IMG/VR virus record: IMGVR_UViG_3300012347_000336
Direction: 5' to 3' (one strand)
DNA: 45,750 bases
Source: a virus
This document shows positions 7,614 through 45,625 of the stretch, one piece after another. The position numbers were made by a program, and so were the translations under genes. Each line of letters begins with the position of its first letter. The stretch's first letter is position 1. The notes under the pieces were generated by a model. That model worked only from the letters and a program-made list of their open reading frames with translations, had not been told where the DNA came from and did no database searches.

Positions 7614-7619
7614 AGTGTA

Positions 7620-27064: not shown

Positions 27065-27495
27065 TTCGAGTTGTGAAGATGAAGCCTCACCACTTGCAGG
27101 AGCTGCGCTTGCAGCCGATGCAGGAGGGGCTTTCGGCGACAATCAGGGACGACGCTTATGCGCAGTCCTTGGCCGAGACGGACTATGCGTTTGCTGTTCT
27201 TGCTGACGGCAAGGTCATCGCGTGTGCTGGTTGCCTTGAGATGTGGGAGAACCGCGCGTATGCGTGGTCGATGATTTCAAAAGACGCAGGGCCTCATTTC
27301 TTTGGGTTCTTGCGCGTGGTGGATGGCTTTTTAAAGCAGGCCCCATGGCGCAGGATTGAGGCCGCTGTGCAGTCAGATTTTGTGCAGGCGCATCGCATGA
27401 TCCGCTTGCTTGGTTTCGAGTTCGAGGGCTGCATGCGTGCGTTCTCGGTCGATGGTGTGGATAACGATCTTTACGCGAGGGTGCGACATGGCTGA
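27061..27495 (+). CDS. gp13-position protein with a GNAT-like fold signature (144 aa)
   Basis: The ATG at 27061 forms an ATGA overlap. '...RRIEAAVQSDFVQAHRMIRLLGFEFEG' resembles the acetyltransferase-fold C-terminal beta-alpha-beta unit. Its size and position match T7 gp13. Confidence 0.5.
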   Translation: MIRVVKMKPHHLQELRLQPMQEGLSATIRDDAYAQSLAETDYAFAVLADGKVIACAGCLEMWENRAYAWSMISKDAGPHFFGFLRVVDGFLKQAPWRRIEAAVQSDFVQAHRMIRLLGFEFEGCMRAFSVDGVDNDLYARVRHG

Positions 27496-28063
27496 TCCGG
27501 TAACGTTAATGCTGATCGCTGGTGGCATGCAGGCCGTCGGCGCAATACAACAAGGCAAAGCTCAGGCTGCTCAGCTTGAAAGCCAAGCCCGTGCTGATGA
27601 CTACAACGCTCAGATTCAAGCGAATCAAGCGGAAGAGACTGCACGTCAGGCTGGCCAACGCGAGGACTTGCAGCGTCGTCAGGCGCGTGCATTGATTGGC
27701 AAGCAAGTGGCCGGCACGGCTCAGGCTGGCATCAAGATGACCGGCTCTGCGCTGGACTTGTTGAATCAGTCTTACAAGGCGTCTGAGGAGGATGCGCTTG
27801 CGATTCGCTACGAGGGTGAGCTGAATCGTCAGGGTTTGCTGCAACAGTCTGAGCTGACCAAGTTTCAGGCTGCGTCTAATCGTTCGGCTGCTTCGTCCAC
27901 GATGAAGAACGCGTACTTGTCTGCCGCCACATCGATGGCGTCGGCTTATGCTTACACGAAGATGCCAGGCATAACGACGCCTGCTGGCTCCACCGGTACC
28001 GGCTTGAAGTCCGCTGGCTCGATGGGCTTTAAACCAACAGGCGGCATTGGCTTGCGCTACTAA
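27488..28063 (+). CDS. Internal virion protein, gp14 position (191 aa)
   Basis: The ATG at 27488 overlaps the upstream stop. It has an N-terminal hydrophobic helix (VTLMLIAGGMQAVGAI) followed by a Gln/Ala-rich coiled coil. Its size matches T7 gp14. Confidence 0.55.
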   Translation: MADPVTLMLIAGGMQAVGAIQQGKAQAAQLESQARADDYNAQIQANQAEETARQAGQREDLQRRQARALIGKQVAGTAQAGIKMTGSALDLLNQSYKASEEDALAIRYEGELNRQGLLQQSELTKFQAASNRSAASSTMKNAYLSAATSMASAYAYTKMPGITTPAGSTGTGLKSAGSMGFKPTGGIGLRY

Positions 28064-28072: not shown

Positions 28073-30673
28073 ATGGCAACAATTCCAGTTTATGAACGAC
28101 GCGTCCTGCCTTCTGGCGTTGGCGTGACACCGCGTGCCCAAGGTGCGCAGGTTGCTTCGACGGGTCAGGCTGTGGCGAACATGGGCCGAGCTCTTGGCCA
28201 GTTTGCCGAGCAGGAGATGGAAGACCGAGGCGCTCTTGAGGCGTCCAACGCTTTGTCAAAGGGCGACCTGCAATGGCGCGATCAGTTCACCGCGCGTGCG
28301 AACGAGTGGAAGCCTGGCGATCCTGACCTGCGCGAGCAGATCGGCAAGGAGTTCGATACTTGGACGCAAGAGACCGCTGGCAAGCTGCCGACCCGCAAGG
28401 CGCAGATGTATTTCCAGCAGAACGCTATCTCGATGAAGAACCGGCTCGACCGCGATGCCTTCATGCATCAAGAGCGCACGATCACCAATTCTGTTTTGCA
28501 ATCGACCGACGAGGGCATGCAGGCTGACATTCAGTTGGTGTTTGCTGACCCGAATCGTCGCGAGGAAATCGTCAAGCGTCGCGTGGCCACCATTGAGGCC
28601 GTTGGCCGAATCCCACCGGACAAGCGTCGCGAGATTTCGTTGAAGTTCATTGAGCAGGCCAACATGGCCGCTGAACAGTCCGAGCTTGCTGCCGACCCGT
28701 CTGGCTACTATTCGCGTCGTTTTGGCCGCATGGCTGTCGATGGCGCTGGCGCTTCTGGCGGATTCAACCATTCGATCGACATGCTACTCAAGTCCGAGGG
28801 TGGCTATGTCAGCGCCGACGGCACTTCTGGCGCTCCGGCCAACTTTGGCATCAATCAAAAATTCAACCCCGACATTGACGTCAAGTCGTTGACCCGCGAG
28901 AAGGCTGTCGAAATCTACAAGCAGCGCTACTGGGACAAGATCAACGGCGACGCGATGCCTCCTGAGCTGCAAGCGACCGCCATGGATGCTGCGGCCAATC
29001 AGGGCGTGGCTAATGCGAACAAGTGGATTGCTGAATCTGGTGGTGACCCTGTGCGCTTCAATGAGTTGCGTCGCGCTCACTACGAGTCGTTGATCGCGTC
29101 TGGCAAGTACACGGAGGCCGAGGGCAAGTCTTGGATGCGTCGCTTGGGAATCCACGAGAAAGCTGCCAACGGTGCGCTGCCGTCCGAAGATGACGCGGTC
29201 ATGGGCACGTCGCCTGGCTCGTTCATGGCGCTGCCCTACGAGAAGCGTTTGCAGTTGCGTCGTGCGGCTGATTCGGCCATCAAGCAAAACACAGCGGTGG
29301 CTGCGCAGGCTTTGCGTGGCCGATTGGCTGATTCGTCGGCCATGGCGCGTGACGGCATTCGTGACCCCAACCCGTTGACGCCCGAGTCGTTTGCTCCGCT
29401 TGGTGCTGATGCCACCATGGCGTACACCGAGTACGCTCGCACGCAGCAGTTGGCCACGGACGTTGCCGCGTTTAAGGGCTCCAACAATTCAACGCTTGAG
29501 GCTGTGGCTTCTGGTGGTGTGGTTCGTGCCGTTGCTGGTGCTGGGTACGCCGCTGAGGACGCCCGCGACAAGATTCGCCAACAAGCGGCTGCATCGATCT
29601 TGCAGCAGCGCAATGCCGACCCTGCTGGCTACGTCTCGAAAAACGTTCCGTCTGTCACCGAGTCCATGCGCACCATGCTGTCGGCCAAAACGCCCGAGGA
29701 GCAAGCTGCCGCAACGCAGAGCTTTGCCCGTGAGACGCTGGCCGCTCAGACCAACATGGGTGTTCGTGAGCCTCGCATCTTGTCGAAGGCTGCGGTTGAT
29801 GATCTTGGCACGCGTATTGCCAGCGGCAAGGAATCCGCCGCCGACCTGACTGCTGCGCTTGAGTCGCAATATGGCAAGCAGTACTTTCCGCAAGTTATGC
29901 GTGAGCTCATGAAGGACAGCAAGTTGCCGCCTGCCATGATGATCATTCCAGACCTGCCGTCTGCTGATGCTCGCGAGACCGTTTCTCGACTGTCGGCCAT
30001 GAAGCGTTCGGACTTGGATGCTGGCGTTGACGCGTCGATGATCAAGGACATCAAGGCCAAGGTCACAGACCACATCGCCGAGTTCCGCTTGTCTGCTGGC
30101 CCAATCGGCAAGGTCGGCGCTGAGCAAATGTCGGCGTATCAGGAAACCATGGAGCGCATCGCGATTGACTTTGCTGCCCGTGGTGTGCATAAAAACGGAG
30201 GCGCTGCGGCTGATGCTGCGCGTCAAATGCTGATTGGCAAGTACCAATTCGACGGCACATTGCGCATGCCTGCTGGCGTCAATTCTGGCGCTGTGACTGG
30301 TGGCCTGAGCAAGACTTTGCAGACAACGGTGCTGCCTGCGCTGACTGAGGCCGATGTGCCTGCTGATACGACTGGTGCTCGAACCGGTACCGAGGCGCTG
30401 ATCGAGTGGCGCAATTCTGTGGCTTCGCGTCATTTTTGGCTTGCAAACAACGACACCACGGCTGCTCAGTTGTGGGTCAAGGGTAAGAACGGCGAGTTCT
30501 TCCGCGTGATGCAGGGTGGCCAGCAGGTTGAGGTTCCGTTTGAATCTGCAACAGACATGTCTTCTTTGGCCGCTCAGCCGCATAATAGGGCCAGAATTGC
30601 TCAGCGCACCTACCGCGAATCTTTGGCGGTTGGCTCGCGCAAGATCGAGCAGCAAATGCAACAGGCTAAATAA
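28073..30673 (+). CDS. Internal virion protein (gp15 position) with an embedded GH108-like muramidase domain
   Basis: Residues about 230-345 read 'IDMLLKSEGGYVSADGTSGAPANFGINQKF...AVEIYKQRYWDKI...ELQATAMDAAANQGVANANKWI', which matches the glycoside hydrolase 108 pattern (EGGY catalytic box). Confidence 0.7.
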   Translation: MATIPVYERRVLPSGVGVTPRAQGAQVASTGQAVANMGRALGQFAEQEMEDRGALEASNALSKGDLQWRDQFTARANEWKPGDPDLREQIGKEFDTWTQETAGKLPTRKAQMYFQQNAISMKNRLDRDAFMHQERTITNSVLQSTDEGMQADIQLVFADPNRREEIVKRRVATIEAVGRIPPDKRREISLKFIEQANMAAEQSELAADPSGYYSRRFGRMAVDGAGASGGFNHSIDMLLKSEGGYVSADGTSGAPANFGINQKFNPDIDVKSLTREKAVEIYKQRYWDKINGDAMPPELQATAMDAAANQGVANANKWIAESGGDPVRFNELRRAHYESLIASGKYTEAEGKSWMRRLGIHEKAANGALPSEDDAVMGTSPGSFMALPYEKRLQLRRAADSAIKQNTAVAAQALRGRLADSSAMARDGIRDPNPLTPESFAPLGADATMAYTEYARTQQLATDVAAFKGSNNSTLEAVASGGVVRAVAGAGYAAEDARDKIRQQAAASILQQRNADPAGYVSKNVPSVTESMRTMLSAKTPEEQAAATQSFARETLAAQTNMGVREPRILSKAAVDDLGTRIASGKESAADLTAALESQYGKQYFPQVMRELMKDSKLPPAMMIIPDLPSADARETVSRLSAMKRSDLDAGVDASMIKDIKAKVTDHIAEFRLSAGPIGKVGAEQMSAYQETMERIAIDFAARGVHKNGGAAADAARQMLIGKYQFDGTLRMPAGVNSGAVTGGLSKTLQTTVLPALTEADVPADTTGARTGTEALIEWRNSVASRHFWLANNDTTAAQLWVKGKNGEFFRVMQGGQQVEVPFESATDMSSLAAQPHNRARIAQRTYRESLAVGSRKIEQQMQQAK

Positions 30674-30681: not shown

Positions 30682-33600
30682 ATGACCCTTTACTTCGATC
30701 AAGGCGGTACCGACCGCGTCACACTTCAAGACATCGAGCCTTCGTTTGGCACAAAGATGGGCGCTGCCGTCGATGAGGCTTGGCTTGAGTCGTATGGGCC
30801 GACCGCTGTTGATTGGGTAAACAAGAAGCGCCAGCAGGGCGAGCCGTTGTCTGCTGTTGCCGCTGCTGACAAAATCAAAGGCTCCGGCCTTGCTGTGTCT
30901 TTGAAGCCCAAGGACAACGAGTACACCGACGCCCAGCTTGATGTGGTTCTTGGCCGTCAGCGCGAGTTGACCGTTGCCAAGGACATTCGCGACCGCACGC
31001 CTTGGGACATGGGCTCTGCCGTGCGTGGTGTTGCCATGTTTGGTGCTGGCATTGCTGACCCTGTCAACTTGGCCACCGCGTTTGTCCCATGGACTCGTGC
31101 TGTCGGTGCTGCACGCGGCCTTGAGGCCGCTCGCTTGTCATCGTCTGCGCTGACCCGCTTTGGTGGCCGTGCTGGCTTGGGTGCGATTGATGCTGGCATT
31201 TCGACTGCCGCGCTTGAGCCGCTTTATGCTGGCATGCGTCGCAGCTTGGGTGACGACTATGACGCCATGGATTCTGTGGCAAACATCGCATTTGGCACTG
31301 CCTTTGGTGGCGGTGTGCTTGGCGTTGGTGGTGTGGGCGTGGACGCGTTCAGACAGGCCACAGGGCGTGCGTTGCCGTCCGCTAGGTTCAAAGGTATGTC
31401 CACGGACGATATCGAGCTTGTAACCGGCTTAGAGCGCGAAATTGCTGCTGGCATGGATGCTCGCGACGTTGCGCGTGTGCTGGAGACCTATTCGCCCGAG
31501 ATGCGCAAGTCTATGGGTTTTCCTGATGCCGATGCAACGCTAGACGTTGTTGTGCCTCCTGCTGGCATGGTGACCGGCAACGACGCCCGAGTGAAGGTTG
31601 GCGAGGTGTACGAGCCTGCGCAATGGGCCGTGGTCGATGCCGACCAGCTCACCGCCACGATCGACAAAGCCGACAACCAATTCCGCGACCGCAATCGTGC
31701 CGCTTATCAGGCCGAGCTGCAAACCCGCGCAAACAACCTAGACCCATCCTTGCTGCTGTCTGTGGATAACCCGCTGATGGACGTTGGCACGCCAACCATT
31801 GCAGTCGATGGCCGCATCATTGGTGGCAATGGCCGCACGCTGTTCATCCAACGCGCCTATGAAATCGGCAAGGGTGAAGACTACCGTGCCGCCTTATTGG
31901 CCAAGCTGACCGAGCTCGGCATCGACCCTGCGCAGGCTGAGGGCATCAAACGCCCAGTGCTCGTGCGTCGCTTCACGCGTCAGGTTGACGTCAAGAAGGC
32001 CGCGATGCTCTCCAACGAGGGTGGCTCCACTGCTATGTCTGCGCTGGAGCAGGCCAAGGTGGACGCTGAGCGCTTGTCGAACATCCGTCTGGAGGCTGAC
32101 GCCGACGGCAACTTCAACGTGGCGGGCAATCGTGCTGGCATCCGTCGCTGGCTTGAGGCTGTGCCGGACGGTGAGCGCAATGAGTTGATGTCTGCCGATG
32201 GCATGCTGTCGTCTGCTGGTTTGCAGCGCTTGCGCAACGCTTCCCTGTTTCGTGCCTATGGTGATTCGCCTGTGCTGGAGCGTTTGGTCGAATCGACGAA
32301 CGTTGGCAGTCGCAACGTTGCCTCTGCGCTGGCTCGTACTGTTGGCGTTGTTGCCGACGCTGAGGCTGGCATTGGCCGTGGTGAGCTGTACCCGTTGTCG
32401 ATCTCTGACGACATTCGCATGGCTGTTGAGCAATTTGAAAACCTGCGCCAGATGGCCATGCCGGTTGACGCCTACCTTGCCCAGCAGGACGCCTTGGGCG
32501 ACGCGCTGACCGGTGAGGCCCGTTTGCTTTTGAGTGTGATTGGCCGTCATGTGGCCAGCTCTCGCCGCATTGCCGACGTGATTTCTGGTTACTACGACCG
32601 CGTGCAAGACCTGGGCAACCCGTCGCAGGCTGACATTTTTGGCGACGTGATGACGCCCGACAAGCTGCGCATGCTGCAAGATTCGATCGACGAGATGGAG
32701 TCGCGCATGGACAACGCTGCCGAGGTAGTCGAGAAGGTCGAGCCAGAAACGCGTGAGGCCGCAATGCGTGCTGGAATCGCCCAGATGGCTGATGGCCGCG
32801 TGGTGGACGTTGAGGCGATCATCAAGACTGACCCAGCCGCTGGTGGCACTGCCACGGCTCAGGACTTACAGTCTGCTGCGGCTCGCAATCAAGCGCCGGA
32901 GTCTTTGCGTGTTGCTGACTTTGAGGCCAGTGGCGCAATTGACGCCGAGAATGCTACGGCTCCTAAGTGGTCTGGCGTTGCTGACGCTCAGGCTGCTATG
33001 GATGAGGCCGACGCCATGTTGGCCGACACGCTCAAGGCTGGCGATCAAGCGTTCAAGTACTCGCGCGGTGAAGCTCCTGGCCAGAAGAAGGCCACCGTGT
33101 GGCAGGGCACCACTGCCCGCTTTGCTGCCGAGCCAAACAACCCGCTTGGCATGTTCCGCTGGGACAAGATTAACAGCGAGTTCGGCGAGCAGGCGCAGGC
33201 GTTTGGCTATGGCCACTACCTTGCTCAGCAGGCTTGGGTTTCGCAGACGCGGTACCGTCAGCGCTTGACCGAGCGCCGGTTAAGTCAGGGCCGCTCGTAT
33301 GAGGTTTCTGATGGTGCTGGTGGCACGATGATCTTGAACATGATCACCAGCGCCAAGGCCTTTACATTGGCTGACGGCACGGTTGTTCACCGAGACCAAA
33401 AGAACCCAGCTATGGCCGCTAAGGCTGCTGCAATTTATCAAGTGCGCGAGTTTGGCTATGAGGGTGCTGAAATTAGCTTTCGTCGGCGAATCCAAGAAAT
33501 TGAAAATTCGATTGCAAATGAAACGTCTCCGTCAATGGCCGCTCGCATGCGTGGCGATCTTGCCGACGTTCGCGTCCGCTTGCGTGCAATTTATGACGTG

Positions 33601-36600
33601 ACTAAGCCCAACGAGGTGATCTATGACGAGGCGAAGATGGAGGGCGAGTTTGCCAAGTCCAGCTTCTACATCGACAACGACCCGATCAATGGCGCGGCTG
33701 CTCGCTTGTATGTTCAGAATTCACCGTTCGGCTTTGGCAACAAGGATTTTGACAGCGTCAACGAAGCGGTGCAGTTCATCCGCGACAACGCTGGCCGCAC
33801 GCTTGACCCTTCCATCAAAGAGTACGTGCCGCCTGTGCCGGACGACATGCGCACGCGCGTCATCGCTGGCGGTCAGGAAATCACCAGCAACTTGAGCTTG
33901 TACATCGAGCGCGAGGCCGATATCAGTTCTGGCCGCGTGCTGGGTGAAACCATTGGTTTGGACATCAAGCCTCGCACCTCGACGATCAAGGGTGTGAACA
34001 AGGTGGTGCAGCTCGATATGCTGCTTGAGCGTTTGAATCGCGACCAGCAGGCCGATGCCGTTGCGTCTCGTCAGTCTGCGATCACCGAGCTGGAGCAGTT
34101 GATTTCCAATGGCGTGACCGAGGCAAACGTCGAAGCGCCTGGCAGTCTGTACCGTGCTGAAATTCCAGAGGACGTGTTTGGGCGCATGCTTTTGTGGGAG
34201 GCACCCATGGGTGAGCAGTCCCCAGAGATTCAGGCGCTGTTTGAGGACTGGGGTCTTGAGCCGTTCAAGCCACCAGTGTGGGAGCCCATCGATGGTGGCT
34301 TCCAAATTGATCATGGCGTCAGCGGCAAGGTTGCTGTGAAAGAGCTCAAGCAACCGTCCGTTCAGGCGATCCTTGACCAGTACGGGTACCAGATTTATGA
34401 GGCTCCTGCTGGCAGTCCTGACGAGTGGGCTTTCCAATTCAAGGACGGGTCTGTGTCTTACTACAGCACGCTGACGGACGCCGAGGCTGTGGCCATCCGC
34501 GAGTGGGAGGTGGATTCTGGTGCTGAGGACGGTCGCTTTGCGTTCTATCGGCAAGGCAACCTTGCTGGCAACTATGCAACGCTGGACGAGGCTAAGGCTG
34601 CGGCCATGGACTGGTTGGGCGTGTCAGACTACACAGGCGAGTATGCCTACCGCTGGCTGGTCGACCAAATCAATTCAGGCGAGTATGGCGACGAGCTGGG
34701 CGACCCGATCATGGAGGCCCACTACGAGATCGCTACGCGTCGCTTCCCTGACGTTGAGCCAATTCAGGCTATGTCGGATTACGACCCGAGCCCAGAAGAA
34801 GTGGCCTCGATCATCTTGCACAACAACGGCGTGCCAGGTCATTTGTTCTTTGATGGCCAGTCTCGCGCTGCCGGTCAGGGTGCTTACAACCTAGTGGTTT
34901 ACGCTGATGACGTTGCCAAGATCGTTGATCGCTACGCACGCCAGACTGGTGAGCTGCTTCGCGCTACGGACAATCCTGCCGACATGGTTCAGGCTTTGCG
35001 CCTGTCGTTTGGCGAATCGACCGAGACGCTGCTTGATGCTGGCCGCGTTCGCATCGTTGCAACGCCAGATCAAATACCTGGCGGGCCGCATCCGGCTGAC
35101 GTCAAAGGCGCGACCGCACCGAACGGCTTGGTCTACATGGTGGCGTCTAACCTGAGCGTGGCTGAGGCCAAGGGCATGATGCTGCACGAGGTCGGCGTTC
35201 ACGTTGGCATGGAATCCATGCTTGGGCGTGAGTTGTTTGACGAGGTGTTGTCACAGCTTGACGACGCCATCTTGCGTGGTGAGGATTGGGCGCAGCGTGC
35301 CCGCGCTTCTGTTCCTGCCGACACGGCTGCTAGTTTGGTTCGTGAGGAGCAGTTGGCCTACTTGGTGCAAAACGCGCCGGAGCTGCCAATCGTTCAGCGC
35401 ATCATCGCTGCCGTTCGCGCTTGGGCTTACCGCACGTTTGAGGCTGCTCGTGGACGGTTTCAGCTCACCGAGGCCGACTTCCGCGCTTTGGCTGTGTCTG
35501 CCTTGCACGCTGCAGCACGCGCCGAGAAGGTAAGCGCTGAGGGCTTGTCGCCTGCGTTCTCTCGCGATCTCAAGCAAACGGCCACACGCGCGTTCCGTGA
35601 GTGGTTTGGTAAGTCTGAGCTCGTTGACGCTGCTGGCGATCCGTTGGTGATGTACCACGGCACGGCTGAGGACTTGGATGCTGTTGACCTTGGCCGCGCT
35701 GGTACCGCCACTGACATGGGCAACATGGGCACCGGCTTCTATGTCACGCCTGAGGACTTTATCGCCGAGACTTATGCCCGCATGGCTGGTGGTGACCGTG
35801 TTGTGATGCCTTTGTTTGTTCGCGCCGAGAACGTGCTCAAGCTGGGCACGCTGGACGAGAACTACATCACAGCCGTTACGCGTTTGACCGACGAGTGGGG
35901 CATGGCTGAGAAGCCTCAGTTCGACGGCACCAAGCAAAAGAACAAGGCATGGGCTGACGAGTTCGCGGCTGCGGCTCAGGCCCGTGGGTTTGACGCTGTT
36001 GCTGCCTACACGCCTGCTGGTGAAATGTTCCAGCTCGCTGTGTTCCGTGAGGACGCCGTCAAGCACGCCACTGAAAACACCGGCCAGTTCTCTCCAACTG
36101 ACAAACGCTTGCGCTACTCGCGTGGTGAGACGCCTGACAACGCTGGTGAAAACCCTGAGATGAAGGCAGCGGACGCCAAGGTGGCGCGTGCCAAGTCTTA
36201 TGCCAAGGTGCTTCGTTCTGCCGCTGACAAGCTGGACAACGACGCCGAGGCTGTGGCTGCGATGAAGTCTGAAATGCCGGACATCATGCCGGAGGAAATC
36301 GACGACTTGCTCGGCCGGTTGCGCAAGCAGGTGCAGGGCCTTCGTGGTGTGACGCGTTCTGTGCGTGACGCCATGGGCGCTGAGGATGCTGCGGCCAAGA
36401 TGCAAACTGAGGCCATGCGTGCGGCTGACATGCTGGCGAACAACTTGGAGATGGCTGCTGTCATCGAGCGTCGCAACGTGGCGCTAAACATGAACGTGCG
36501 CTTAAAGGCCGCGTCGTTTGTGAACCAGTACAAATCTAAGGGCTTGGACTTTGAGGGCTTTGCTGCCTTGCTGGTCGGCTCTCAGCGTGTTCGTGCTGGC

Positions 36601-38784
36601 GCTCGTGTGTCTGTCGATGCTGAGTACAAGGGTTTCCGTGGGGAGTTCTTGGGCGGCATGATTGCCGACATTGAGAAGCTGGGCCTCATGCGTGAGTTCG
36701 TGTCTGGCGTGTTTGACCGTGATGTGTACGACGCGCTGTGGCGCTTAGGCCAAGACAAGCCGGACTTGACCGGTCTGTCGCCTCAGGCGGTGCAGTTGGC
36801 AGAGATCGTCAACAAGTACCAGCAGACCGCTCGCGATCGTCGTAATCGTTTTGGCGCTTGGATTCGTGATCTGCAAGGCTACATCACGCGCCAGTCGCAC
36901 GACATGTTCAAAATCCGCGAGGCAACGGATGCCGAGTGGGTGGACTTCGTGAAGGACAAGCTCGACCTGCCCAAGATGATGCGATTGGGTTTGATCAGCG
37001 AAGTTGACCCCATGGGCTCGTTGCGTGCTCTGTACGACGACTTTGCTGCCGGTGTGCACATGAAGGCCAACCCGTTGGACGAGGACACGGTCGCCATGGG
37101 CAAGGGCTCGAATCTGGCGAAACGTGAATCTGTCAGCCGTGCCTTGTACTTCAAGGATGGCGTCTCGGCGTTTGAGTACAACCAGCGCTTTGGCATGGGC
37201 ACCTTGGCCGAGTCCGTTGTGACCGGCCTTGACCGCTCTGCCTCTGCTGCTGCGCTGCTCAAGACCTTGGGCACCAACCCAGAGGCAACGCTCACCCGTT
37301 TGCTTGACGAGTACGAGAATTCGCTTGTGTCTGACCCTGTCCGACGCGCCAAGTTCCGCGAGCGTCGTGGTGCTGTGATGAACTTGTTGGCTCAGGTGGA
37401 CGGCTCGGTGAACATTCCTGGCGATGTGACTGCGGCCAAGATCAGCTCGTTTGCCCGCTCTTGGATGAGCATGGCCAAGCTGGGTGGCGCGTTAATTTCT
37501 TCGGTGTCGGACTTGGCTGGTTACGCGGCTGAGCTGCGCTACTCCGAGGGGAAGAACATGTTTGAGGGTGTGCTTGACGGCATGAACCGACTGACTGAGG
37601 GCCGTGCCAAGAACGAGAAGGCCGACATTGTGTCTTCGCTTGGCGTGTTCCACGAGTCTGTGGCTGGCTCTGTGAGCGCCCGTTTTGACAATCCTGACTT
37701 GGTGGCTGGCAAGATGGCTGCGGCCATGCAGCAGTTCTTCAAGTTGAACGGTTTGAATTGGTGGACTGAAACGTTGCGCGACGGTGCTGCCTTGCAGCAT
37801 TCGCACTACATGGCGTTGCAGGCTGGCAAGAAGTTTGACGGTCTAGACCCAGAATTGCAGCGCTTGCTTACGCTCTACAACATCGACGGCAAGAAGTGGG
37901 ATTTGTTGCGTATGGGCACCATGCAAATGGCCGACGGTCGTGCGTACATGACGCCAGAGGCTTTGCGCACCGTGCCGCGTGCTGCGCTTGAGAACTACAT
38001 CACCGAGGTTGGCCGCACAGTCAGCGACGCGTCAGTGAAGAACTTGACCGACGATTTGTCGCAGGCTTTGCGCGTTATGGCCGTTGATCGTGCCCACCAT
38101 GCAGTGCTGGAGCCAAGCGCTCGCTCTCGTGCGTGGATGCTCCGTGGTTCACGCCCTGGCACTGTGCAGGGTGAGTTGCTGCGATTCATTGGCCAGTTCA
38201 AATCGTTTAGTGTGGCGATGACGCAGATGGTCTTGGGCCGCGAGGTCTATGGCCGTGGTTATGACACCGTGGGTGAGTACATCAAGAACGGGCGTGGCGA
38301 CATGGTTGGCTTGGCCTCGATGATCGGCATGTATGGTGCGTTGGGCTATGCCGCCATGGCTGGCAAGGACTTGCTCAAAGGGCGCGAGCCTCGTGACCCG
38401 ACCGACCCCAAGACCATCGTGGCCGCTTTGGCTCAGGGTGGTGGCCTTGGTATCTATGGCGACTTCCTGTTCGGCGAGTACTCGCGTATGGGCCGCACGT
38501 TCACATCGTCGCTGGCTGGGCCTGTGATCGGTAATTTGGACACGCTGACCGACTTGTGGACGCGCGTGCGCAACGGTGACGACGTGGCTGCGGCTTCATT
38601 TAAGGCGTTGCTGGACAATACACCGTTCTTAAATCTGTACTGGATTCGCCCGCTTTTGGACTACATGGTGCTGTTCCGCATTCAGGAATCGCTGAACCCT
38701 GGCTTCTTGCGCCGGATGGAGAAGCGGATCGAGCGTGAGAACGGTCAGTCATATATCTTGCCGCCGTCACAGGTAGCGTTCTAA
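30682..38784 (+). CDS. Giant polyvalent virion/ejection protein (2,700 aa; T7 gp16 position) with ParB-like and ADP-ribosyltransferase-like modules
   Basis: A single uninterrupted ORF with a GAGG RBS. A ParB-like box 'DGRIIGGNGRTLFIQRAY' lies at residues about 375-393. An ART-like module 'FREWFGKSELVDAAGDPLVMYHGT...GTGFYVTPEDF' lies at about 1637-1693. Gly-zipper hydrophobic segments occur near both termini. Confidence 0.85.
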   Translation: MTLYFDQGGTDRVTLQDIEPSFGTKMGAAVDEAWLESYGPTAVDWVNKKRQQGEPLSAVAAADKIKGSGLAVSLKPKDNEYTDAQLDVVLGRQRELTVAKDIRDRTPWDMGSAVRGVAMFGAGIADPVNLATAFVPWTRAVGAARGLEAARLSSSALTRFGGRAGLGAIDAGISTAALEPLYAGMRRSLGDDYDAMDSVANIAFGTAFGGGVLGVGGVGVDAFRQATGRALPSARFKGMSTDDIELVTGLEREIAAGMDARDVARVLETYSPEMRKSMGFPDADATLDVVVPPAGMVTGNDARVKVGEVYEPAQWAVVDADQLTATIDKADNQFRDRNRAAYQAELQTRANNLDPSLLLSVDNPLMDVGTPTIAVDGRIIGGNGRTLFIQRAYEIGKGEDYRAALLAKLTELGIDPAQAEGIKRPVLVRRFTRQVDVKKAAMLSNEGGSTAMSALEQAKVDAERLSNIRLEADADGNFNVAGNRAGIRRWLEAVPDGERNELMSADGMLSSAGLQRLRNASLFRAYGDSPVLERLVESTNVGSRNVASALARTVGVVADAEAGIGRGELYPLSISDDIRMAVEQFENLRQMAMPVDAYLAQQDALGDALTGEARLLLSVIGRHVASSRRIADVISGYYDRVQDLGNPSQADIFGDVMTPDKLRMLQDSIDEMESRMDNAAEVVEKVEPETREAAMRAGIAQMADGRVVDVEAIIKTDPAAGGTATAQDLQSAAARNQAPESLRVADFEASGAIDAENATAPKWSGVADAQAAMDEADAMLADTLKAGDQAFKYSRGEAPGQKKATVWQGTTARFAAEPNNPLGMFRWDKINSEFGEQAQAFGYGHYLAQQAWVSQTRYRQRLTERRLSQGRSYEVSDGAGGTMILNMITSAKAFTLADGTVVHRDQKNPAMAAKAAAIYQVREFGYEGAEISFRRRIQEIENSIANETSPSMAARMRGDLADVRVRLRAIYDVTKPNEVIYDEAKMEGEFAKSSFYIDNDPINGAAARLYVQNSPFGFGNKDFDSVNEAVQFIRDNAGRTLDPSIKEYVPPVPDDMRTRVIAGGQEITSNLSLYIEREADISSGRVLGETIGLDIKPRTSTIKGVNKVVQLDMLLERLNRDQQADAVASRQSAITELEQLISNGVTEANVEAPGSLYRAEIPEDVFGRMLLWEAPMGEQSPEIQALFEDWGLEPFKPPVWEPIDGGFQIDHGVSGKVAVKELKQPSVQAILDQYGYQIYEAPAGSPDEWAFQFKDGSVSYYSTLTDAEAVAIREWEVDSGAEDGRFAFYRQGNLAGNYATLDEAKAAAMDWLGVSDYTGEYAYRWLVDQINSGEYGDELGDPIMEAHYEIATRRFPDVEPIQAMSDYDPSPEEVASIILHNNGVPGHLFFDGQSRAAGQGAYNLVVYADDVAKIVDRYARQTGELLRATDNPADMVQALRLSFGESTETLLDAGRVRIVATPDQIPGGPHPADVKGATAPNGLVYMVASNLSVAEAKGMMLHEVGVHVGMESMLGRELFDEVLSQLDDAILRGEDWAQRARASVPADTAASLVREEQLAYLVQNAPELPIVQRIIAAVRAWAYRTFEAARGRFQLTEADFRALAVSALHAAARAEKVSAEGLSPAFSRDLKQTATRAFREWFGKSELVDAAGDPLVMYHGTAEDLDAVDLGRAGTATDMGNMGTGFYVTPEDFIAETYARMAGGDRVVMPLFVRAENVLKLGTLDENYITAVTRLTDEWGMAEKPQFDGTKQKNKAWADEFAAAAQARGFDAVAAYTPAGEMFQLAVFREDAVKHATENTGQFSPTDKRLRYSRGETPDNAGENPEMKAADAKVARAKSYAKVLRSAADKLDNDAEAVAAMKSEMPDIMPEEIDDLLGRLRKQVQGLRGVTRSVRDAMGAEDAAAKMQTEAMRAADMLANNLEMAAVIERRNVALNMNVRLKAASFVNQYKSKGLDFEGFAALLVGSQRVRAGARVSVDAEYKGFRGEFLGGMIADIEKLGLMREFVSGVFDRDVYDALWRLGQDKPDLTGLSPQAVQLAEIVNKYQQTARDRRNRFGAWIRDLQGYITRQSHDMFKIREATDAEWVDFVKDKLDLPKMMRLGLISEVDPMGSLRALYDDFAAGVHMKANPLDEDTVAMGKGSNLAKRESVSRALYFKDGVSAFEYNQRFGMGTLAESVVTGLDRSASAAALLKTLGTNPEATLTRLLDEYENSLVSDPVRRAKFRERRGAVMNLLAQVDGSVNIPGDVTAAKISSFARSWMSMAKLGGALISSVSDLAGYAAELRYSEGKNMFEGVLDGMNRLTEGRAKNEKADIVSSLGVFHESVAGSVSARFDNPDLVAGKMAAAMQQFFKLNGLNWWTETLRDGAALQHSHYMALQAGKKFDGLDPELQRLLTLYNIDGKKWDLLRMGTMQMADGRAYMTPEALRTVPRAALENYITEVGRTVSDASVKNLTDDLSQALRVMAVDRAHHAVLEPSARSRAWMLRGSRPGTVQGELLRFIGQFKSFSVAMTQMVLGREVYGRGYDTVGEYIKNGRGDMVGLASMIGMYGALGYAAMAGKDLLKGREPRDPTDPKTIVAALAQGGGLGIYGDFLFGEYSRMGRTFTSSLAGPVIGNLDTLTDLWTRVRNGDDVAAASFKALLDNTPFLNLYWIRPLLDYMVLFRIQESLNPGFLRRMEKRIERENGQSYILPPSQVAF

Positions 38785-38808: not shown

Positions 38809-40788
38809 ATGACCGTTTCAACAACCACAGCGCGATCGGGCCCGTATGCTGGCTCCGGCACGACTGGCCCATTCACCGTAGGATTCCGCTTCCTCGAAAA
38901 CTCTCACATTAAGGTCGTGAAAAACGTGGCCGGTGTAGAGGAGGAGCTGGAGCTTGATGTCGACTACACCGTCACTGGTGCTGGCGCTTCGTCTGGTTCT
39001 GTGACGCTTGGTACCGCTTTAGCCACTGGCCAGACGCTGACCATCGTTCGCAACGTGCCGACGACGCAAGAGACGGACTATGTGGCTGGCGATTCGTTCC
39101 CTGCTGAATCTCACGAGCGTGCGCTTGACCAGCTCACCATGATTGCGCAGCAGCTCAAGGAGGAGGTCGATCGCTCCGCCAAGCTGCCGGTGTCAAACAC
39201 CGAAGATGCGAACGCCTTGGTGGCCGACATTGTCCGTTTGGCCGATAGCGCCGACGAGCTGGATGCTGTTGCTGCAATCGTTGCTGACGTGACCACCGTT
39301 GCTGGTGTGGACACTGAGGTCACCACCGTCGCCGGTATCGCTGCCAACGTGACCACGGTTGCTGGTATTGCTGCTAATGTGACCACGGTGGCTGGCAACA
39401 CGACCAACATCAACACTGTGGCTGGAGTCTCGTCAAACGTGACGACCGTCGCTGGCGTGTCTTCTGCTGTGACTACTGTGGCTGGCATCTCTGCGGCTGT
39501 GAGTACCGTTGCCGCTGATGGCGTTGACATTGGTGCGGTTGCGGCCATCTCTGTCGACGTTCAAGCTGTGGCCGATATTGCCAGCGACGTTTCTGCCGTT
39601 GAGAACATCGCGGCCAACGTGACGACCGTGGCAGGTATCTCCTCCAACGTTACGACCGTGGCTGGCATCGCTGCAAACGTCACGACTGTGGCCGGTGTGT
39701 CTGCTGCTGTGTCTACCGTGGCCACAAACATTGCGTCTGTAAACAGCGCGGCCACAAACATGGCTGCAATCATCGCTGCACCAACTGAGGCTGCAAACGC
39801 TGCCAGCTCTGCCAGCTCTGCTGCTGCAAGCGCTGCTGCTGCTTCTTCGTCTTTGGATTCGTTTGATGATCGCTACCTTGGCCCGAAGTCGTCTGACCCA
39901 ACGCTTGACAACGACGGAAACGCTTTGGTGACCGGTGCGTTGTACTACAACACCACCACGCAGACCATGAAGGTCTATGACGGTGCGAACTGGATCACTG
40001 CCACGGCTGCTGGCACGACAGCGATGAACGTCTACAAGTACGTTGCAACCGCTGGTCAGACAACATTCAGTGGGGCTGCTGCTGTCGGTGGCACTATGAG
40101 CTACACAAGTGGCAACATCATCGTGTTCTTGAACGGCGCTGCACTTGATAGCACAGACTACACGGCAACCAACGGCACAAGCGTTGTGCTTGCATCTGGC
40201 GCTGCGCTGAATGATGAAGTTGTGGTGGTGGCATTTAAGTCGTTCACTGTAGCTGACACTTACACGCAGTCTGCTGCTGATGCGTTGTTGGCTGCAAAGG
40301 CTCCGCTTGCAAGTCCCACGTTTACTGGTTTAGTTACGACTGCTGGGCAGATCAAATTTCCAGCATCTCAAAACGCCAGCGCTGACGCAAACACGCTGGA
40401 TGATTACGAGGAGGGGACTTGGACGCCCACACTGACTGCGGCAGTTTCCGCTCCAACAATTTCCTACGCTTTAAGAACTGGAACCTATGTAAAGATTGGC
40501 AGGATGGTTACAGTTTTTGCAACTTTGCGCTGGACATCTTTTAGCGGAGGAAGCGGTAATTTGCTCGTCAATAATTTGCCTTTTGTTGGGGCTTCAGATT
40601 CGGACGAGTGCGGAGGAGCGATAGGCTTGACTGTAAGCTGGACAACTGCTCCAACACAATTACAAGTTGATTCCACTACGGCTAATCTTTATCTCATGCG
40701 GAATACGGCAAACGCAAACAGCCCAGTCGGAGATGTTGGGTCTGGTCAATATTTGAATTTTTCAATTTGCTACACCACAGATTCTTAA
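38809..40788 (+). CDS. Tail fibre protein (659 aa; T7 gp17 position)
   Basis: A GGAG RBS precedes it. The N-terminal virion-attachment-like domain reads 'GPFTVGFRFLENSHIKV...DYTV...GQTLTIVRNVPTTQETDY...ESHERALDQLTMIAQQLKEE'. It carries 17 decapeptide repeats, the fibre motif 'GALYYNTTTQTMKVYDGANWI' and the distal 'LDDYEEGTWTPTL' domain. Confidence 0.85.
   Translation: MTVSTTTARSGPYAGSGTTGPFTVGFRFLENSHIKVVKNVAGVEEELELDVDYTVTGAGASSGSVTLGTALATGQTLTIVRNVPTTQETDYVAGDSFPAESHERALDQLTMIAQQLKEEVDRSAKLPVSNTEDANALVADIVRLADSADELDAVAAIVADVTTVAGVDTEVTTVAGIAANVTTVAGIAANVTTVAGNTTNINTVAGVSSNVTTVAGVSSAVTTVAGISAAVSTVAADGVDIGAVAAISVDVQAVADIASDVSAVENIAANVTTVAGISSNVTTVAGIAANVTTVAGVSAAVSTVATNIASVNSAATNMAAIIAAPTEAANAASSASSAAASAAAASSSLDSFDDRYLGPKSSDPTLDNDGNALVTGALYYNTTTQTMKVYDGANWITATAAGTTAMNVYKYVATAGQTTFSGAAAVGGTMSYTSGNIIVFLNGAALDSTDYTATNGTSVVLASGAALNDEVVVVAFKSFTVADTYTQSAADALLAAKAPLASPTFTGLVTTAGQIKFPASQNASADANTLDDYEEGTWTPTLTAAVSAPTISYALRTGTYVKIGRMVTVFATLRWTSFSGGSGNLLVNNLPFVGASDSDECGGAIGLTVSWTTAPTQLQVDSTTANLYLMRNTANANSPVGDVGSGQYLNFSICYTTDS
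39265..39774 (+). repeat. In-frame array of 17 x 30-bp (decapeptide, consensus TVAGIAANVT) repeats inside the fibre gene
   Basis: The 30-nt periodicity is visible directly in the 60-nt sequence lines 39301-39720. The units differ mainly at synonymous positions. Confidence 0.9.
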
Positions 40789-41030: not shown

Positions 41031-41288
41031 ATGTCACTGCAAGAAACAAAAGTCATCGACCAAATCACCGTCACCGAAAACGGCATTGTGCTGTATCGTG
41101 AAGCAACTCGCATCACTCGCGACGGAGAACAAATCGCGCAGACATTCCACCGCACTTCACTTGTGCCTGGCCAAGACCTGACTGACCAGCCAGCTAACGT
41201 AGTTGCCATTGCCAACGTAGCTTGGACACCTGAAGTCGTCGCCGCATACGAGGCGCAAGTCGCCGCACAAGCTGGAGGTGTTCAATGA
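41031..41288 (+). CDS. Small hypothetical protein (85 aa) between the two fibre genes
   Basis: An AAGGAAATCAA RBS context precedes it. It is ATGA-coupled to the second fibre gene and may be a fibre accessory or chaperone, judging by position only. Confidence 0.65.
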   Translation: MSLQETKVIDQITVTENGIVLYREATRITRDGEQIAQTFHRTSLVPGQDLTDQPANVVAIANVAWTPEVVAAYEAQVAAQAGGVQ

Positions 41289-42379
41289 GCAACGCAAGAG
41301 AATTAGCAGAGCTGGCCGGTAGCTACGGCACTGGCGGTTTTGTGGGGATGAAGAACCGCATCATCAATGGCGACATGCGCATTGATCAGCGTAATGCGGG
41401 TGGTGTTGTGGCAGCATCACAGAACGTTAGCAACGTCTACATGCTAGACCGCTGGTGCTATTACTTCTACGGTGTTGGCACTGCGAACTTCCAACAAGTT
41501 TCTGATGCACCTGCTGGCTTTACCAAGTCACTCAAGATGACTGTGACTGGTGTTGACTCAACCATCGCAGGTGCTGACGATTACATGATTCGTCATTTCA
41601 TTGAAGGGTTCAACTTCGCTGATATGGGCTGGGGCGCTGCTGGCGCTCAATCAGCAACACTTTCATTCTGGGTGAAGTGTTCAACGACAGGCGTTATCGC
41701 AGTTGCACTGCAAAGCGGCGCTGGCGATTTGTCTTATGTGACTCCCGTGACAATCAACTCCGCGAACACGTGGGAATACAAGACTGTCACGATTGCTGGC
41801 CCAGCATCTGGCACGTTTGCTACTGGAAACACAGCGAATGTGTCTGTGAACTTCTCTGTCGGAAATTCCAAGACCAACACCGCCAACACTTGGAACGCTG
41901 GTAACTATATTGGAGTATCTGGTGCGACCAACTTCATGGCGACCAACGGTCTTACATTCCAAGTCACAGGCGTTCAACTAGAAAAAGGCAGCACAGCCAC
42001 ATCGTTTGACTACCGCCCGTATGGTACTGAGTTGGCTTTGTGTCAGCGGTATTACTTTAAAACAGGGTCTGGGGCTGGTGGAACGCTTGCTATTGGGCAG
42101 GCTGCAAATTCAACTCTTGCCGAGATGCACGTTCATTTTCCAGTCTCAATGAGAGCTGCCCCTACGGCTTTAGATCAAAGCGGAACGGCATCAAATTACA
42201 GCATTATTTATGGTGTAAATTCAGCGGCCTCAACGGTTGTTCCATATATTGCAGGGTCTCAGTCAACTAAAGACATTGGAGTCTGTGTTGCAACGGTTTC
42301 TAGCGTATTAACAGCGGGTTATGCAGTGTACTTGCGTAGTTCTGCTGGTGGAGCACTTGGATTTAGTTCGGAGCTATAA
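41285..42379 (+). CDS. Second tail fibre / receptor-binding protein (copy 2 of 3..1097)
   Basis: Identical translation at offset +41,282. Confidence 0.75.
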   Translation: MSNARELAELAGSYGTGGFVGMKNRIINGDMRIDQRNAGGVVAASQNVSNVYMLDRWCYYFYGVGTANFQQVSDAPAGFTKSLKMTVTGVDSTIAGADDYMIRHFIEGFNFADMGWGAAGAQSATLSFWVKCSTTGVIAVALQSGAGDLSYVTPVTINSANTWEYKTVTIAGPASGTFATGNTANVSVNFSVGNSKTNTANTWNAGNYIGVSGATNFMATNGLTFQVTGVQLEKGSTATSFDYRPYGTELALCQRYYFKTGSGAGGTLAIGQAANSTLAEMHVHFPVSMRAAPTALDQSGTASNYSIIYGVNSAASTVVPYIAGSQSTKDIGVCVATVSSVLTAGYAVYLRSSAGGALGFSSEL

Positions 42380-42380
42380 G

Positions 42381-42551
42381 ATGACCTATAAAAAATTACC
42401 AAAACTTCGACAAGATGACTCTCAGTCGTTGGCCTGCATTGACGATGACGGTAAGTGCCGTCTAACTTGCACGGAGCAAGACCAAGCCTATTTGGCATGG
42501 TTGGAGGAAGGCAACACGCCCGAGCCAGCAGACGAACCAACAGCGGAGTAA
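42381..42551 (+). CDS. Small hypothetical protein (copy 2 of 1099..1269)
   Basis: Identical copy, offset +41,282. Confidence 0.55.
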   Translation: MTYKKLPKLRQDDSQSLACIDDDGKCRLTCTEQDQAYLAWLEEGNTPEPADEPTAE

Positions 42552-42554
42552 CCG

Positions 42555-42743
42555 ATGGCGACTGAGCACTCAACTGAAACTCTGGCGGCTGTGGCAACTA
42601 AGGTTGCTCCTCCAGCGACAATTTCTCTTGCAACTGTTGCTGGCTACCAAGTCAGCGAATTGGTGCTGTGGGCCACGCTGATCTACACGGTCTTGATGAT
42701 CGGACACAAGTGCTGGCAGATCGTCAAAGAAGCACGCGAATAG
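42555..42743 (+). CDS. Holin-like small membrane protein (copy 2 of 1273..1461)
   Basis: Identical copy, offset +41,282. Confidence 0.55.
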   Translation: MATEHSTETLAAVATKVAPPATISLATVAGYQVSELVLWATLIYTVLMIGHKCWQIVKEARE

Positions 42744-42747
42744 TGAT

Positions 42748-43497
42748 GTGGGCCCAGAGATCATGCTCGCTCTGCAAGCAATGCGTGCTGCGTATAGTGG
42801 CATTCAGTACTGCTGCGATTGCCTACGTGAAGGCTCTGTCGAAATTCAGCGCGTCAAGAAAACAGTCGAAGGTGGGGTTGCTGACGCCAAGAAGATTTAT
42901 GCAGAAGTCACCGGCATCTGGGGGTGGATCAAATCTTTACTTGGTGCGCCTGCAAAACCTAATGGAAGCGCTATCGCCAAGCAGCATGAAGCCGCCGCCG
43001 AGCCAGTCAAATCACCCGCGAAAAAATCCAGCGCCAAAGACGAGTATGTCGACCACATCCCAACGCAGGACGAAGTCGTGCAGCAGTTCATCGGCCACGT
43101 TGGCGAGTGGTTCGACAAGTACGCTTTCCTGAAGTCGTACACCGAGAAGCGCTACGCAGAAGTTTTTGGCAAGGACGTGATCGACCAGAAGGAAGTGCTG
43201 GAGCTCACGCAGTTGCAGGTCGAAGTGGATGCCGCCTACCCAGCGTTGATGACACTGATGACCAGCAATGCGCCATGGCAGCTTGGGCCGATCTGGACGC
43301 AGTTCAAAGAGATGCAGGATAAGGTGAAGGTTGGTCAAGCGGCTCGCCAGATGAAGCAGAAACGCGAGCGTGCTGCGCTGGTGGCTAGGCAACACAGAGA
43401 GCGCCACGACCGCATCGACCGCAACGTGACGGTGTTCTTCTTGCTGCTCATGGTGGCCTACTTTTGGTTGTTGATTGGTATCATTGCGAATGTCTAA
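42748..43497 (+). CDS. Tail-anchored hypothetical protein (copy 2 of 1466..2215)
   Basis: Identical copy, offset +41,282. Confidence 0.65.
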   Translation: MGPEIMLALQAMRAAYSGIQYCCDCLREGSVEIQRVKKTVEGGVADAKKIYAEVTGIWGWIKSLLGAPAKPNGSAIAKQHEAAAEPVKSPAKKSSAKDEYVDHIPTQDEVVQQFIGHVGEWFDKYAFLKSYTEKRYAEVFGKDVIDQKEVLELTQLQVEVDAAYPALMTLMTSNAPWQLGPIWTQFKEMQDKVKVGQAARQMKQKRERAALVARQHRERHDRIDRNVTVFFLLLMVAYFWLLIGIIANV

Positions 43498-43714
43498 ACC
43501 TGACAACCTTGGCGTGATTGTGTTTCTTGGCTTGCTTGTCATGTGCTTTGGCACAGTCATTTTCTGGGGTCTGTTTAAGTTTGCAGTTCAAGATGCCGAG
43601 CGCACACGCGATCGCCGCGAGTTGAACAAGGCTGCATTGGTTTTGCGCGAAGAGAGAGAGAAGCTCGAGCGTTTATTGAAGACGGTGGAAAACACCGAGA
43701 AAGGCAAGGAGTGA
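43490..43714 (+). CDS. N-terminal-TMD coiled-coil protein (copy 2 of 2208..2432)
   Basis: Identical copy, offset +41,282. Confidence 0.55.
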   Translation: MSKPDNLGVIVFLGLLVMCFGTVIFWGLFKFAVQDAERTRDRRELNKAALVLREEREKLERLLKTVENTEKGKE

Positions 43715-44034
43715 AAGAGCTATTACTGAAAATCATCGAGGCGCGTATCAATCGGCCCAAGCCAACCGTCGAAGAGGTCGAGGTGCAAGTGTGGGCCTTT
43801 GTGGTTCGTTCGATCACGATCATGGTGATGGTCATTGCGTTTGGTGTTTTGTACGCCATTGCGTTTGAGGTGCAGTCAGAAGACTTGGCACCAATCGACG
43901 CCATCTTCTTGGAAATCCTGAAAGCCATTGCCTTCATGGGTGTTGGCACATTGGGTGGCATCTCTGGTCGCAAGGCCACTACCGCGATCGCGCAGGCCAT
44001 CGTTGGAAAGCCGGACGATGGACAGCCTTCTTAA
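43711..44034 (+). CDS. Two-TMD membrane protein (copy 2 of 2429..2752)
   Basis: Identical copy, offset +41,282. Confidence 0.6.
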   Translation: MKELLLKIIEARINRPKPTVEEVEVQVWAFVVRSITIMVMVIAFGVLYAIAFEVQSEDLAPIDAIFLEILKAIAFMGVGTLGGISGRKATTAIAQAIVGKPDDGQPS

Positions 44035-44467
44035 TCTGTTGAAGAGCGCAGCCCCAGCGCTGGCCACTGCGGTGGCTGGCCCTATGGGTGGCATGGCTGT
44101 GAAGGCCATTGCTGACAAGCTCGGCGTACCTGCGTCAATTGGTGAGGTGACTAAGGCTTTGGAGTCGAATCCGGAGCTGGCGCTCAAACTCAAAGAGATT
44201 GACACGCGTGCGTTTGAAGCTGAAACAAAGGCCGTCAGCGAACGCTGGCAGGCTGACATGGCCAGTGACTCATGGCTATCAAAAAACATCCGTCCAATGA
44301 CGCTGATCTACATTCTGTCGGCCTATCTAGGCATGGCGGTTGCAGATGGTTTCGGGTTCCGTATTGCCGAGGCGTATGTGAACCTGTTAGGTCAGTGGGG
44401 GATGATCGTAATGACTGCCTACTTCGGTGGTCGCACTGTTGAGAAAGTAATGGAGAGTCGCAAATGA
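44018..44467 (+). CDS. GTA-type 3TM holin-like protein (copy 2 of 2736..3185)
   Basis: Identical copy, offset +41,282. Confidence 0.65.
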   Translation: MDSLLNLLKSAAPALATAVAGPMGGMAVKAIADKLGVPASIGEVTKALESNPELALKLKEIDTRAFEAETKAVSERWQADMASDSWLSKNIRPMTLIYILSAYLGMAVADGFGFRIAEAYVNLLGQWGMIVMTAYFGGRTVEKVMESRK

Positions 44468-45622: not shown

Positions 45623-45625
45623 GTC

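Follow-up and report, generated by a model that had tools for sequence, protein, structure and literature searches.

Does a giant phage protein carry an ADP-ribosyltransferase (ART) into the host cell? This question is raised by a stretch of viral DNA of 45,750 nucleotides (IMG/VR record IMGVR_UViG_3300012347_000336; the whole stretch is referred to as the window), in which a single uninterrupted reading frame codes for a protein of 2700 amino acids (aa). A reading made from the sequence alone had proposed that an ART-like module at positions 35569-36081 is embedded in this protein, that the protein is an ejection protein, and that the module is delivered by the same logic as the Alt protein of phage T4. 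We considered whether the module belongs to a known ART family, which residues form its active site, by what kind of protein it is carried and on what it could act.

Family, fold and active site of the module

The plus strand of 35569-36081 translates in frame 1 as LKQTATRAFREWFGKSELVDAAGDPLVMYHGT...GFYVT...FQLAVFRED... and lies in frame with the open reading frame (ORF) of the 2700-aa protein. The peptide quoted in the sequence-only reading is therefore present, and its residue numbers were correct as well (F1626, YHGT at 1658-1661, GFYVT at 1685-1689). The proposed span lies inside the module but is slightly too short, since the natural module comprises aa 1626-1815 (Table 1).

The Pfam family PF18760 (ART-PolyVal) matched the module over the full length of the profile (positions 1-140 of 140), with an envelope of aa 1649-1803 (nt 35626-36090). 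The score was 66.7 bits (E 4.9e-18) for the module alone and 60.9 bits (E 3.1e-16) for the whole protein, the gathering score of this family being 31.2 bits; a likeness of this strength is much too great to be accidental. The only other Pfam signal on the module was a sub-threshold match to DUF3990. Beyond the Pfam model, the module comprises a conserved N-terminal helix with the pattern F..WFG.S..D and a conserved C-terminal tail.

When only the module was used in a word-indexed search for homologs, nothing was returned, so that an exhaustive search and a search with the whole protein were needed. The exhaustive HMMER search with the module, run against 1.84 billion representative proteins (clusters at 50% identity), retrieved 6797 proteins at a threshold of E<=1e-3, of which 1276 reached E<=1e-10. 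The majority are 1000-7000 aa long and contain several matched stretches. For the family statistics, 580 near-full-length copies from the best 149 of the 6797 proteins were aligned to the module of the window; these 149 proteins typically carry 2-5 copies each, with a maximum of 14. All column frequencies given below refer to the 580 copies.

The ART-PolyVal family corresponds to the 'N4-ART' family of Iyer et al. 2017, whose prototype is located in the virion RNA polymerase protein of Roseovarius Plymouth podovirus 1 (PMC5512222). With its match to PF18760, its predicted fold and the retained catalytic residues of the family, the module belongs to ART-PolyVal, and the earlier assignment to the ART clade of polyvalent proteins was borne out. 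The surroundings of the module are those of a polyvalent protein: a DdrB-like ParB domain is encoded in the same ORF, and a segment with an HExxH motif, a putative peptidase, is also present. The module agrees with the N4-ART family in the full-length match to the hidden Markov model, in the H-Y-D configuration, in the predicted fold and in its residence in a large multidomain phage protein that is expressed late and also contains DdrB-ParB and an HExxH segment. It differs from the prototype in its carrier, which is an internal virion protein of the epsilon15/Ab31 type in the gp16 position and not an N4-type virion RNA polymerase or MuF protein. Furthermore, only one ART copy is present, whereas other polyvalent proteins commonly contain 2-14, and the module is bordered by lineage-specific [FY][SA]R peptides that set it apart from other ART-PolyVal cassettes. 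Neither the domain family nor its occurrence in virion-associated polyvalent proteins is new: both were described in 2017 by Iyer et al., who also proposed the virion-delivery model (PMC5512222), and the subject was revisited in 2022 (PMC9503650). Our finding thus adds an example and not a concept.

The structure of the module was predicted with AlphaFold2 from an alignment of 34 module sequences taken from homologs of the giant protein. The model has a mean pLDDT of 85.8 and a pTM of 0.84. In a Foldseek comparison with the PDB, it matched the ART domains of PARP4, tankyrase (PARP5), PARP3, PARP13, PARP1/2 and diphtheria toxin (probability 0.66-1.0, E 2e-4 to 2e-2, identity 8-16%) and, at rank 8, the phage protein AcrIF11 (6KYF; E 4e-3, TMt 0.49). 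Among the predicted viral structures of BFVD, 84 matches were obtained at E<=1e-3 (best E 3e-16, TMq up to 0.70). The top-ranking ones bear the name ART-PolyVal or 'PolyVal ADP-ribosyltransferase', and proteins of crAss-like phages and the virion RNA polymerase of a Roseobacter phage are among the 84. As modelled, the module has an ART fold, which is the outcome that the sequence-only reading had expected of such a comparison; the opposite outcome, no ART-fold prediction, was not seen. In common with diphtheria toxin and the PARPs, the module contains YHG[TS] on strand 1, G-x-Y/F-h-[ST] on strand 2 and an acid at the start of strand 5, but this acid is Asp instead of Glu and a helical regulatory domain is missing from the module.

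The first-ranked PDB match of the model was 9K3A_B, a pre-ejectosome chain of cyanophage A4 (E 7.6e-5, TMq 0.41). The paper on cyanophage A4 leaves one 'alpha+beta' domain of the ejection protein gp28 unassigned (PMC12002296). Pfam scans of the ejection proteins gp26, gp27 and gp28 of Anabaena phage A-4L (locus L002, 25321-28497) found no ART, and a profile comparison (hhalign) of the C-terminus of A-4L gp28 with the ART alignment was null (probability 0.1). The likeness seen with the model is kept only as a lead.

In the published description of ART-PolyVal, the active site consists of a His on strand 1, a Tyr on strand 2 and an Asp on strand 5, and the family is grouped with the Tox-ART-HYD2 clade (Iyer et al. 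2017, PMC5512222). In our model, H1659 is situated in strand 1 (module residues 31-36), Y1687 in strand 2 (61-64) and D1771 immediately before strand 5 (147-151). The columns of all three residues are listed in Table 1; that of Y1687 is aromatic or His in about 96% of the copies, and the column of G1769, just ahead of D1771, is Gly in 92%. Going by the alignment, the triad is intact and is H1659-Y1687-D1771, an H-Y-D type that matches the published configuration of the family. The sequence-only reading had assumed an H-Y-E type with a later acidic residue, and the peptide that it quoted ends in the acidic 'FRED'. The acidic residue at the start of strand 5 is Asp 1771 and not a Glu, and the 'FRED' end lacks conservation: Pro is found at position 1790 in 73% of the copies and Glu at position 1791 in no more than 33%, E1790 and D1791 of the window copy both falling into non-conserved columns. 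As the triad is H-Y-D, D1771 would therefore be the acid to mutate. Of the 17 columns with a conservation of at least 85%, the window copy agrees with 12.

A subset of the ART-PolyVal copies shows YRGS in place of YHG[TS] and a Trp in place of the strand-2 Tyr (GWFT[ST]), for example in P0037 (748-922), P0024 (1284-1463) and P0007 (1568-1742). Arg occupies the His column in 4% of the copies, and some proteins have one copy of each type. The YRGS copies may represent a subtype with altered chemistry or an inactive one.

The selection acting on the module was estimated by the method of Nei and Gojobori against the two close relatives with DNA (L003 and L004). The dN/dS ratio of the ART module is 0.057-0.063, at a dS of 0.6-0.7, and that of the C-terminal part of the protein (hereafter the chassis) is 0.045-0.049. 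Since the ratio is low and similar to that of the structural chassis, the module is under strong purifying selection and is maintained in this lineage. The GC content gave no sign of a recent foreign origin of the ART cassette.

A probable ejection protein with exchangeable cargo

By tblastn, the chassis (830 aa) shares 42% identity with gp16, a 'virion structural protein' from Pseudomonas phage Ab31. The identity is about 30% with Pelagibacter podophage proteins carrying the annotation 'internal virion protein' and 26% with proteins from phiV10-like phages. Weakly hydrophobic Gly-rich segments are found near both termini of the 2700-aa protein. A sequence search of the PDB with the chassis matched neither T7 gp16 nor a solved ejection protein, NCBIfam contains no model for the 2700-aa protein, and no exact copy of it is recorded in the contig index.

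The neighbouring genes were annotated by PHROG scans (Table 1). The order tail tube A, tail tube B, gp14-like protein, GH108 protein, giant protein and tail fibre is identical in the relative L003, whose orthologs of the gp14-like gene and of the 866-aa protein show weak matches to PF24072 (T7_gp14) and to PF05838 (GH108), respectively. Phage Ab31 is syntenic in this block, and its chassis is a separate protein of 858 aa. Judging from this gene order, the 2700-aa protein occupies the position of T7 gp16: as with T7 gp16 and the core proteins of the epsilon15/Ab31 type, its gene follows those of the tail tube, the gp14-like protein and the muralytic protein. Unlike Ab31 gp16 (858 aa), however, the giant protein is about three times longer, because cargo modules of about 1870 aa are fused N-terminally to the chassis. 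A distant positional counterpart of the chassis, ORF17 (847 aa) of the Ab31 relative YA3, has been found in purified virions by mass spectrometry (PMC7326022). Both the gene position of the 2700-aa protein and its homology to virion proteins are those of a podovirus ejection protein. It is thus most probably a giant internal virion (ejection) protein and, as the carrier of the ART module, a 'polyvalent protein', and from gene position and homology to annotated virion proteins its packaging and ejection can be inferred with good reason.

Searches with the giant protein found 237 homologs; the domain and motif counts were taken from the best 120 of these. In these homologs the C-terminal third is constant and the remainder variable. 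Many contain ART-PolyVal and DdrB-ParB, others GNAT, Zeta-toxin or PBECR5 domains. Aligned by BLAST with the window protein, the homologs show breaks at aa ~798-824, ~1411-1435, 1625-1628 and 1783-1810, and in homologs without an ART the alignment stops at aa 1625-1628 and resumes at 1783-1810 of the query. In one homolog (P0049) a Zeta-toxin domain (aa 1065-1151) is situated exactly in the ART slot of the window protein; in another (P0064) GNAT stands in place of the ParB region, and a third (P0044) has PBECR5 in the second slot. In P0004, which is 60% identical overall, the slot holds a divergent ART-like module (SHGT...GVYLT...GFDG) that is not recognised by Pfam and is flanked by the same AFSR and RYSRGETP peptides. 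These alignments indicate that the ART is a swappable cargo cassette which has been exchanged for other effector domains in relatives.

Every alignment break coincides with a short [FY][SA]R peptide (Table 1), and a tail of the form ...NPDIRYSRG closes nearly all ART cassettes of this lineage. Across the 120 homologs the motif occurs 3.4 times per cargo region, compared with 1.0 expected from shuffles, an enrichment of about threefold. In the models, the junction peptides form ends of low confidence and are presumably flexible. They could be cleavage sites or recombination joints.

We also considered [FY][SA]R as a general feature of ART-PolyVal. This was rejected, as the motif is found near the C-terminal end in only 12% of the 580 copies against a background of 5%. 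By these counts, it is specific to the lineage.

Directly before the ART slot lies the HExxH segment (aa 1435-1620), the most conserved segment on the cargo side of the protein, in which LHEVGVHVGM and REEQLAYLV are invariant or nearly so among the 120 homologs. The AlphaFold2 model of the segment (pLDDT 77) consists of a helix, three short strands, a long helix with the HExxH motif and a later helix with two Glu residues. The same topology has been described for the zincin-like metallopeptidase (MPTase) of polyvalent proteins, for which a release of domains by autoproteolysis was suggested (Iyer et al. 2017, PMC5512222). The segment had no Pfam match, a comparison of an HExxH profile with the PDB by sequence gave no usable match, and Foldseek found nothing significant, the best match being anthrax lethal factor with E 0.97; the Foldseek result does not support an identity as a peptidase. 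On the basis of the modelled topology, the segment may be a new or very divergent MPTase clade. That it is a peptidase, and that it cleaves at the junction peptides, is put forward here as a hypothesis.

Between the ParB domain and the HExxH segment, aa 796-1417 (33067-34932) form a cargo module without a Pfam match. With a dN/dS of 0.13-0.145, its rate of evolution is 2-3 times that of the remaining protein. It also shows a large insertion or deletion between close relatives, since P0003 lacks aa 867-1050 of the query.

The window contains, in circularly wrapped form, a genome of 41,282 bp with a GC content of 56%: bases 1-4468 recur at 41283-45750 with 0 mismatches. The ORFs in 41283-45750 duplicate those in 1-4468 because the window is written past its own start. 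A megablast search against known phages gave no match, so that the phage is new at the DNA level. It is a podovirus (short-tailed phage) of 41.3 kb related to epsilon15 and Ab31. Three other regions were recorded. Just upstream of the terminase gene, 14673-16010 encodes a 445-aa fusion of an N-terminal ParB-like nuclease and a DNA methyltransferase (phrog_498, E 6e-163; ParB-like PHROGs, E 1e-54). The minus strand carries a recombination module (6714-8579), in which a RecT-like annealing protein is encoded at 6714-7556 and a RecE-like exonuclease at 7620-8579. On the plus strand, 3182-3658 encodes a Peptidase_M15 protein, which is probably the endolysin.

Table 1. Features of the ART-carrying protein and of the surrounding structural genes (positions in the window).
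Feature	Position	Strand	Evidence or remark
Large terminase	16690-18234		PHROG
Portal	18764-20425		PHROG
Scaffold/protease-like protein	20685-21428		PHROG
Major head protein	21783-22802		PHROG
Tail tube A	24201-24854		PHROG
Tail tube B	24851-27064		PHROG
gp14-like internal virion protein	27410..28063	+	phrog_418 'internal virion protein', E 2.7e-20
866-aa protein with GH108 muramidase domain	28073..30673	+	NMB1012-like GH108 proteins in PDB, E 8e-11
Giant ORF, 2700 aa	30682..38784	+	single uninterrupted frame
DdrB-like ParB domain, aa 312-431	31615..31974	+	Pfam PF18763, E 9.9e-23
Junction peptide KYSRG, aa 792-796	33055-33069	+	at module boundary
Junction peptide RYARQ, aa 1417-1421	34930-34944	+	at module boundary
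HExxH (zincin-like) segment, aa 1435-1620	34984..35541	+	HEVGVH at 35185-35202
Upstream ART junction AFSRD, aa 1625-1629	35554..35568	+	alignment break
ART-PolyVal module, aa 1626-1815	35557..36126	+	PF18760, AlphaFold2 model, Foldseek, dN/dS
H1659 codon (YHGT, strand 1), predicted NAD+-binding His	35656..35658	+	column 94% His in 580 copies
Y1687 codon (GFYVT, strand 2)	35740..35742	+	column Y 44%, F 26%, W 17%, H 9%
D1771 codon (RGFDAV, start of strand 5), predicted catalytic acid	35992..35994	+	column 98% Asp
Downstream ART junction RYSRG, aa 1811-1815	36112..36126	+	alignment resumption
C-terminal chassis, aa 1871-2700	36292..38784	+	phrog_684 'virion structural protein', E 1e-171
Tail fibre protein	38809-40788		PHROG

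Possible delivery and actions of the module

We consider it probable, at roughly 70%, that the ART-PolyVal cassette with the triad H1659-Y1687-D1771 is delivered as part of the ejection protein in the gp16 position and modifies a target in the host. The 2700-aa protein would be assembled into the capsid core together with the gp14-like and GH108 proteins, and its ejection at infection would bring it into the envelope and cytoplasm of the host, before the DNA or along with it. There the ART domain would mono-ADP-ribosylate a host macromolecule at the expense of host NAD+ before any phage gene is expressed. The target would probably be a protein of transcription, translation or defence; the accompanying modules of anti-restriction type and toxin type suggest host defence or the core machinery. 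The domain might act while tethered, or after its release at the flanking [FY][SA]R linkers, perhaps cut by the adjacent HExxH segment.

This delivery model is the published model of the family (Iyer et al. 2017, PMC5512222) and fits the place of the gene in the block of ejection proteins. The Alt-like logic put forward in the sequence-only reading stands to this extent: like T4 Alt in the logic proposed for it, the module would be an ART that is packed in the virion, delivered with the DNA and directed at host targets before phage expression (PMC5512222). The module is, however, no relative of Alt. Alt belongs to the R-S-E (Alt/VIP2) clade (PMC5512222), whereas the module is of the H-Y-D type and shows no R-S-E configuration; moreover, Alt is a free head protein of a myovirus and the module is a domain of a podovirus ejection protein. 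T4 Alt is thus an analogue and not a family member. There is also a likeness to AcrIF11, an anti-CRISPR of phages and plasmids (PDB 6KYF), which has a small diphtheria-toxin-like ART fold with a catalytic Asp, as is predicted for the module. The key residues of AcrIF11 are H-F-H-D, and D115 is required for its activity (PMC12421852); it is therefore a precedent for an active phage ART of the diphtheria toxin type with a catalytic Asp. In contrast to the module, which is probably virion-borne and to which it has no detectable sequence similarity, AcrIF11 is a stand-alone, early-expressed protein with the target Csy1 N250.

Several observations weigh against this explanation. The window copy deviates from the consensus at five of the 17 most conserved positions, all of them non-catalytic (F1668V, P1718V, G1772A, Q1792A and S1795H). 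The TM-scores to solved ARTs in the Foldseek comparison with the PDB are modest (0.32-0.42), and sequence searches of the PDB with the module and with its profile gave no usable match. A scan of 10 early ORFs found no ADP-ribose-removing partner or immunity gene of the Macro, ARH or NADAR type. In the literature searched, no experimental study of an ART-PolyVal member was found, and none has been shown to bind NAD+ or to transfer ADP-ribose. Finally, the evidence for packaging and ejection of the 2700-aa protein consists only of synteny and distant homology.

The acceptor is not specified by the sequence, and an ART fold could also act on something other than a protein. The module could transfer ADP-ribose to nucleic acid, in the manner of DarT, or to a small molecule, or it could simply hydrolyse NAD+, for instance to counter NAD+-derived immune signalling. 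The H-Y-[EDQ] superclade does include DNA- and RNA-modifying enzymes (PMC5512222, PMC9503650), and a DNA-related domain, the DdrB-like ParB, is present in the same polypeptide. Nevertheless, Iyer et al. place ART-PolyVal among the protein-modifying domains (PMC5512222), AcrIF11 as the closest characterised phage structural match modifies a protein, and within the module no feature pointing to nucleic-acid binding was found. We regard such an action as doubtful, though it is the strongest of the alternatives.

Much less credible is a catalytically dead ART relic, serving as a structural or spacer element that fills the capsid core or sets the length of the ejection protein. The five altered positions listed above would agree with it, as would the homolog copies with Arg for His ('YRGS'), by which not all copies need be active, and the relatives without an ART in this slot. 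Conservation of the triad is, however, not what one would expect of a mere spacer. Here H, Y and D are all present, the last in a column that is Asp in 98% of the family copies; in addition, the dN/dS of the module (about 0.06) is as low as that of the structural chassis. Least probable is an action on the phage side, in which virion proteins or the packaged DNA end would be modified during assembly, in the producing cell or the capsid: although the protein is made late with the structural proteins and would adjoin the portal, the core proteins and the DNA, and although pre-ejectosome proteins of cyanophage A4 contact a DNA segment (PMC12002296), no precedent was found in the ART-PolyVal literature searched, and the slot appears to carry weapons and not assembly factors, because the modules exchanged for the ART (Zeta toxin) or found in other slots (GNAT or PBECR nuclease) are typical host-directed effectors.

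A more far-reaching version of host-directed delivery can be imagined, which we think rather unlikely as a whole. The giant protein would be a delivery polyprotein with about three hot-swappable slots, and the HExxH segment would cut the [FY][SA]R junctions after ejection and thereby free a pre-loaded ART. The first slot would be occupied by ParB here and by GNAT in a relative, the second by the module without assigned function here and by PBECR5 in a relative, and the third by the ART here and by a Zeta toxin or a divergent ART in relatives. If this were true, the freed ART would disarm a host defence or take control of a host machine ahead of all phage gene expression, and the virion-delivered effectors of podoviruses would be organised as a system of cassettes with a defined cleavage code.

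ART-PolyVal is very widespread and is the commonest predicted macromolecule-modifying domain in polyvalent proteins. What the present case adds to the family is modest and as yet unproven: the slot structure, the junction peptides, the invariant HExxH neighbour and the strong constraint on the module. It does provide a compact test case: in a genome of 41 kb the domain occurs once, with its triad intact and under strong constraint, and the cassette varies among close relatives. In this phage one could study what is modified by such virion-borne ARTs and whether the ejection protein releases them.

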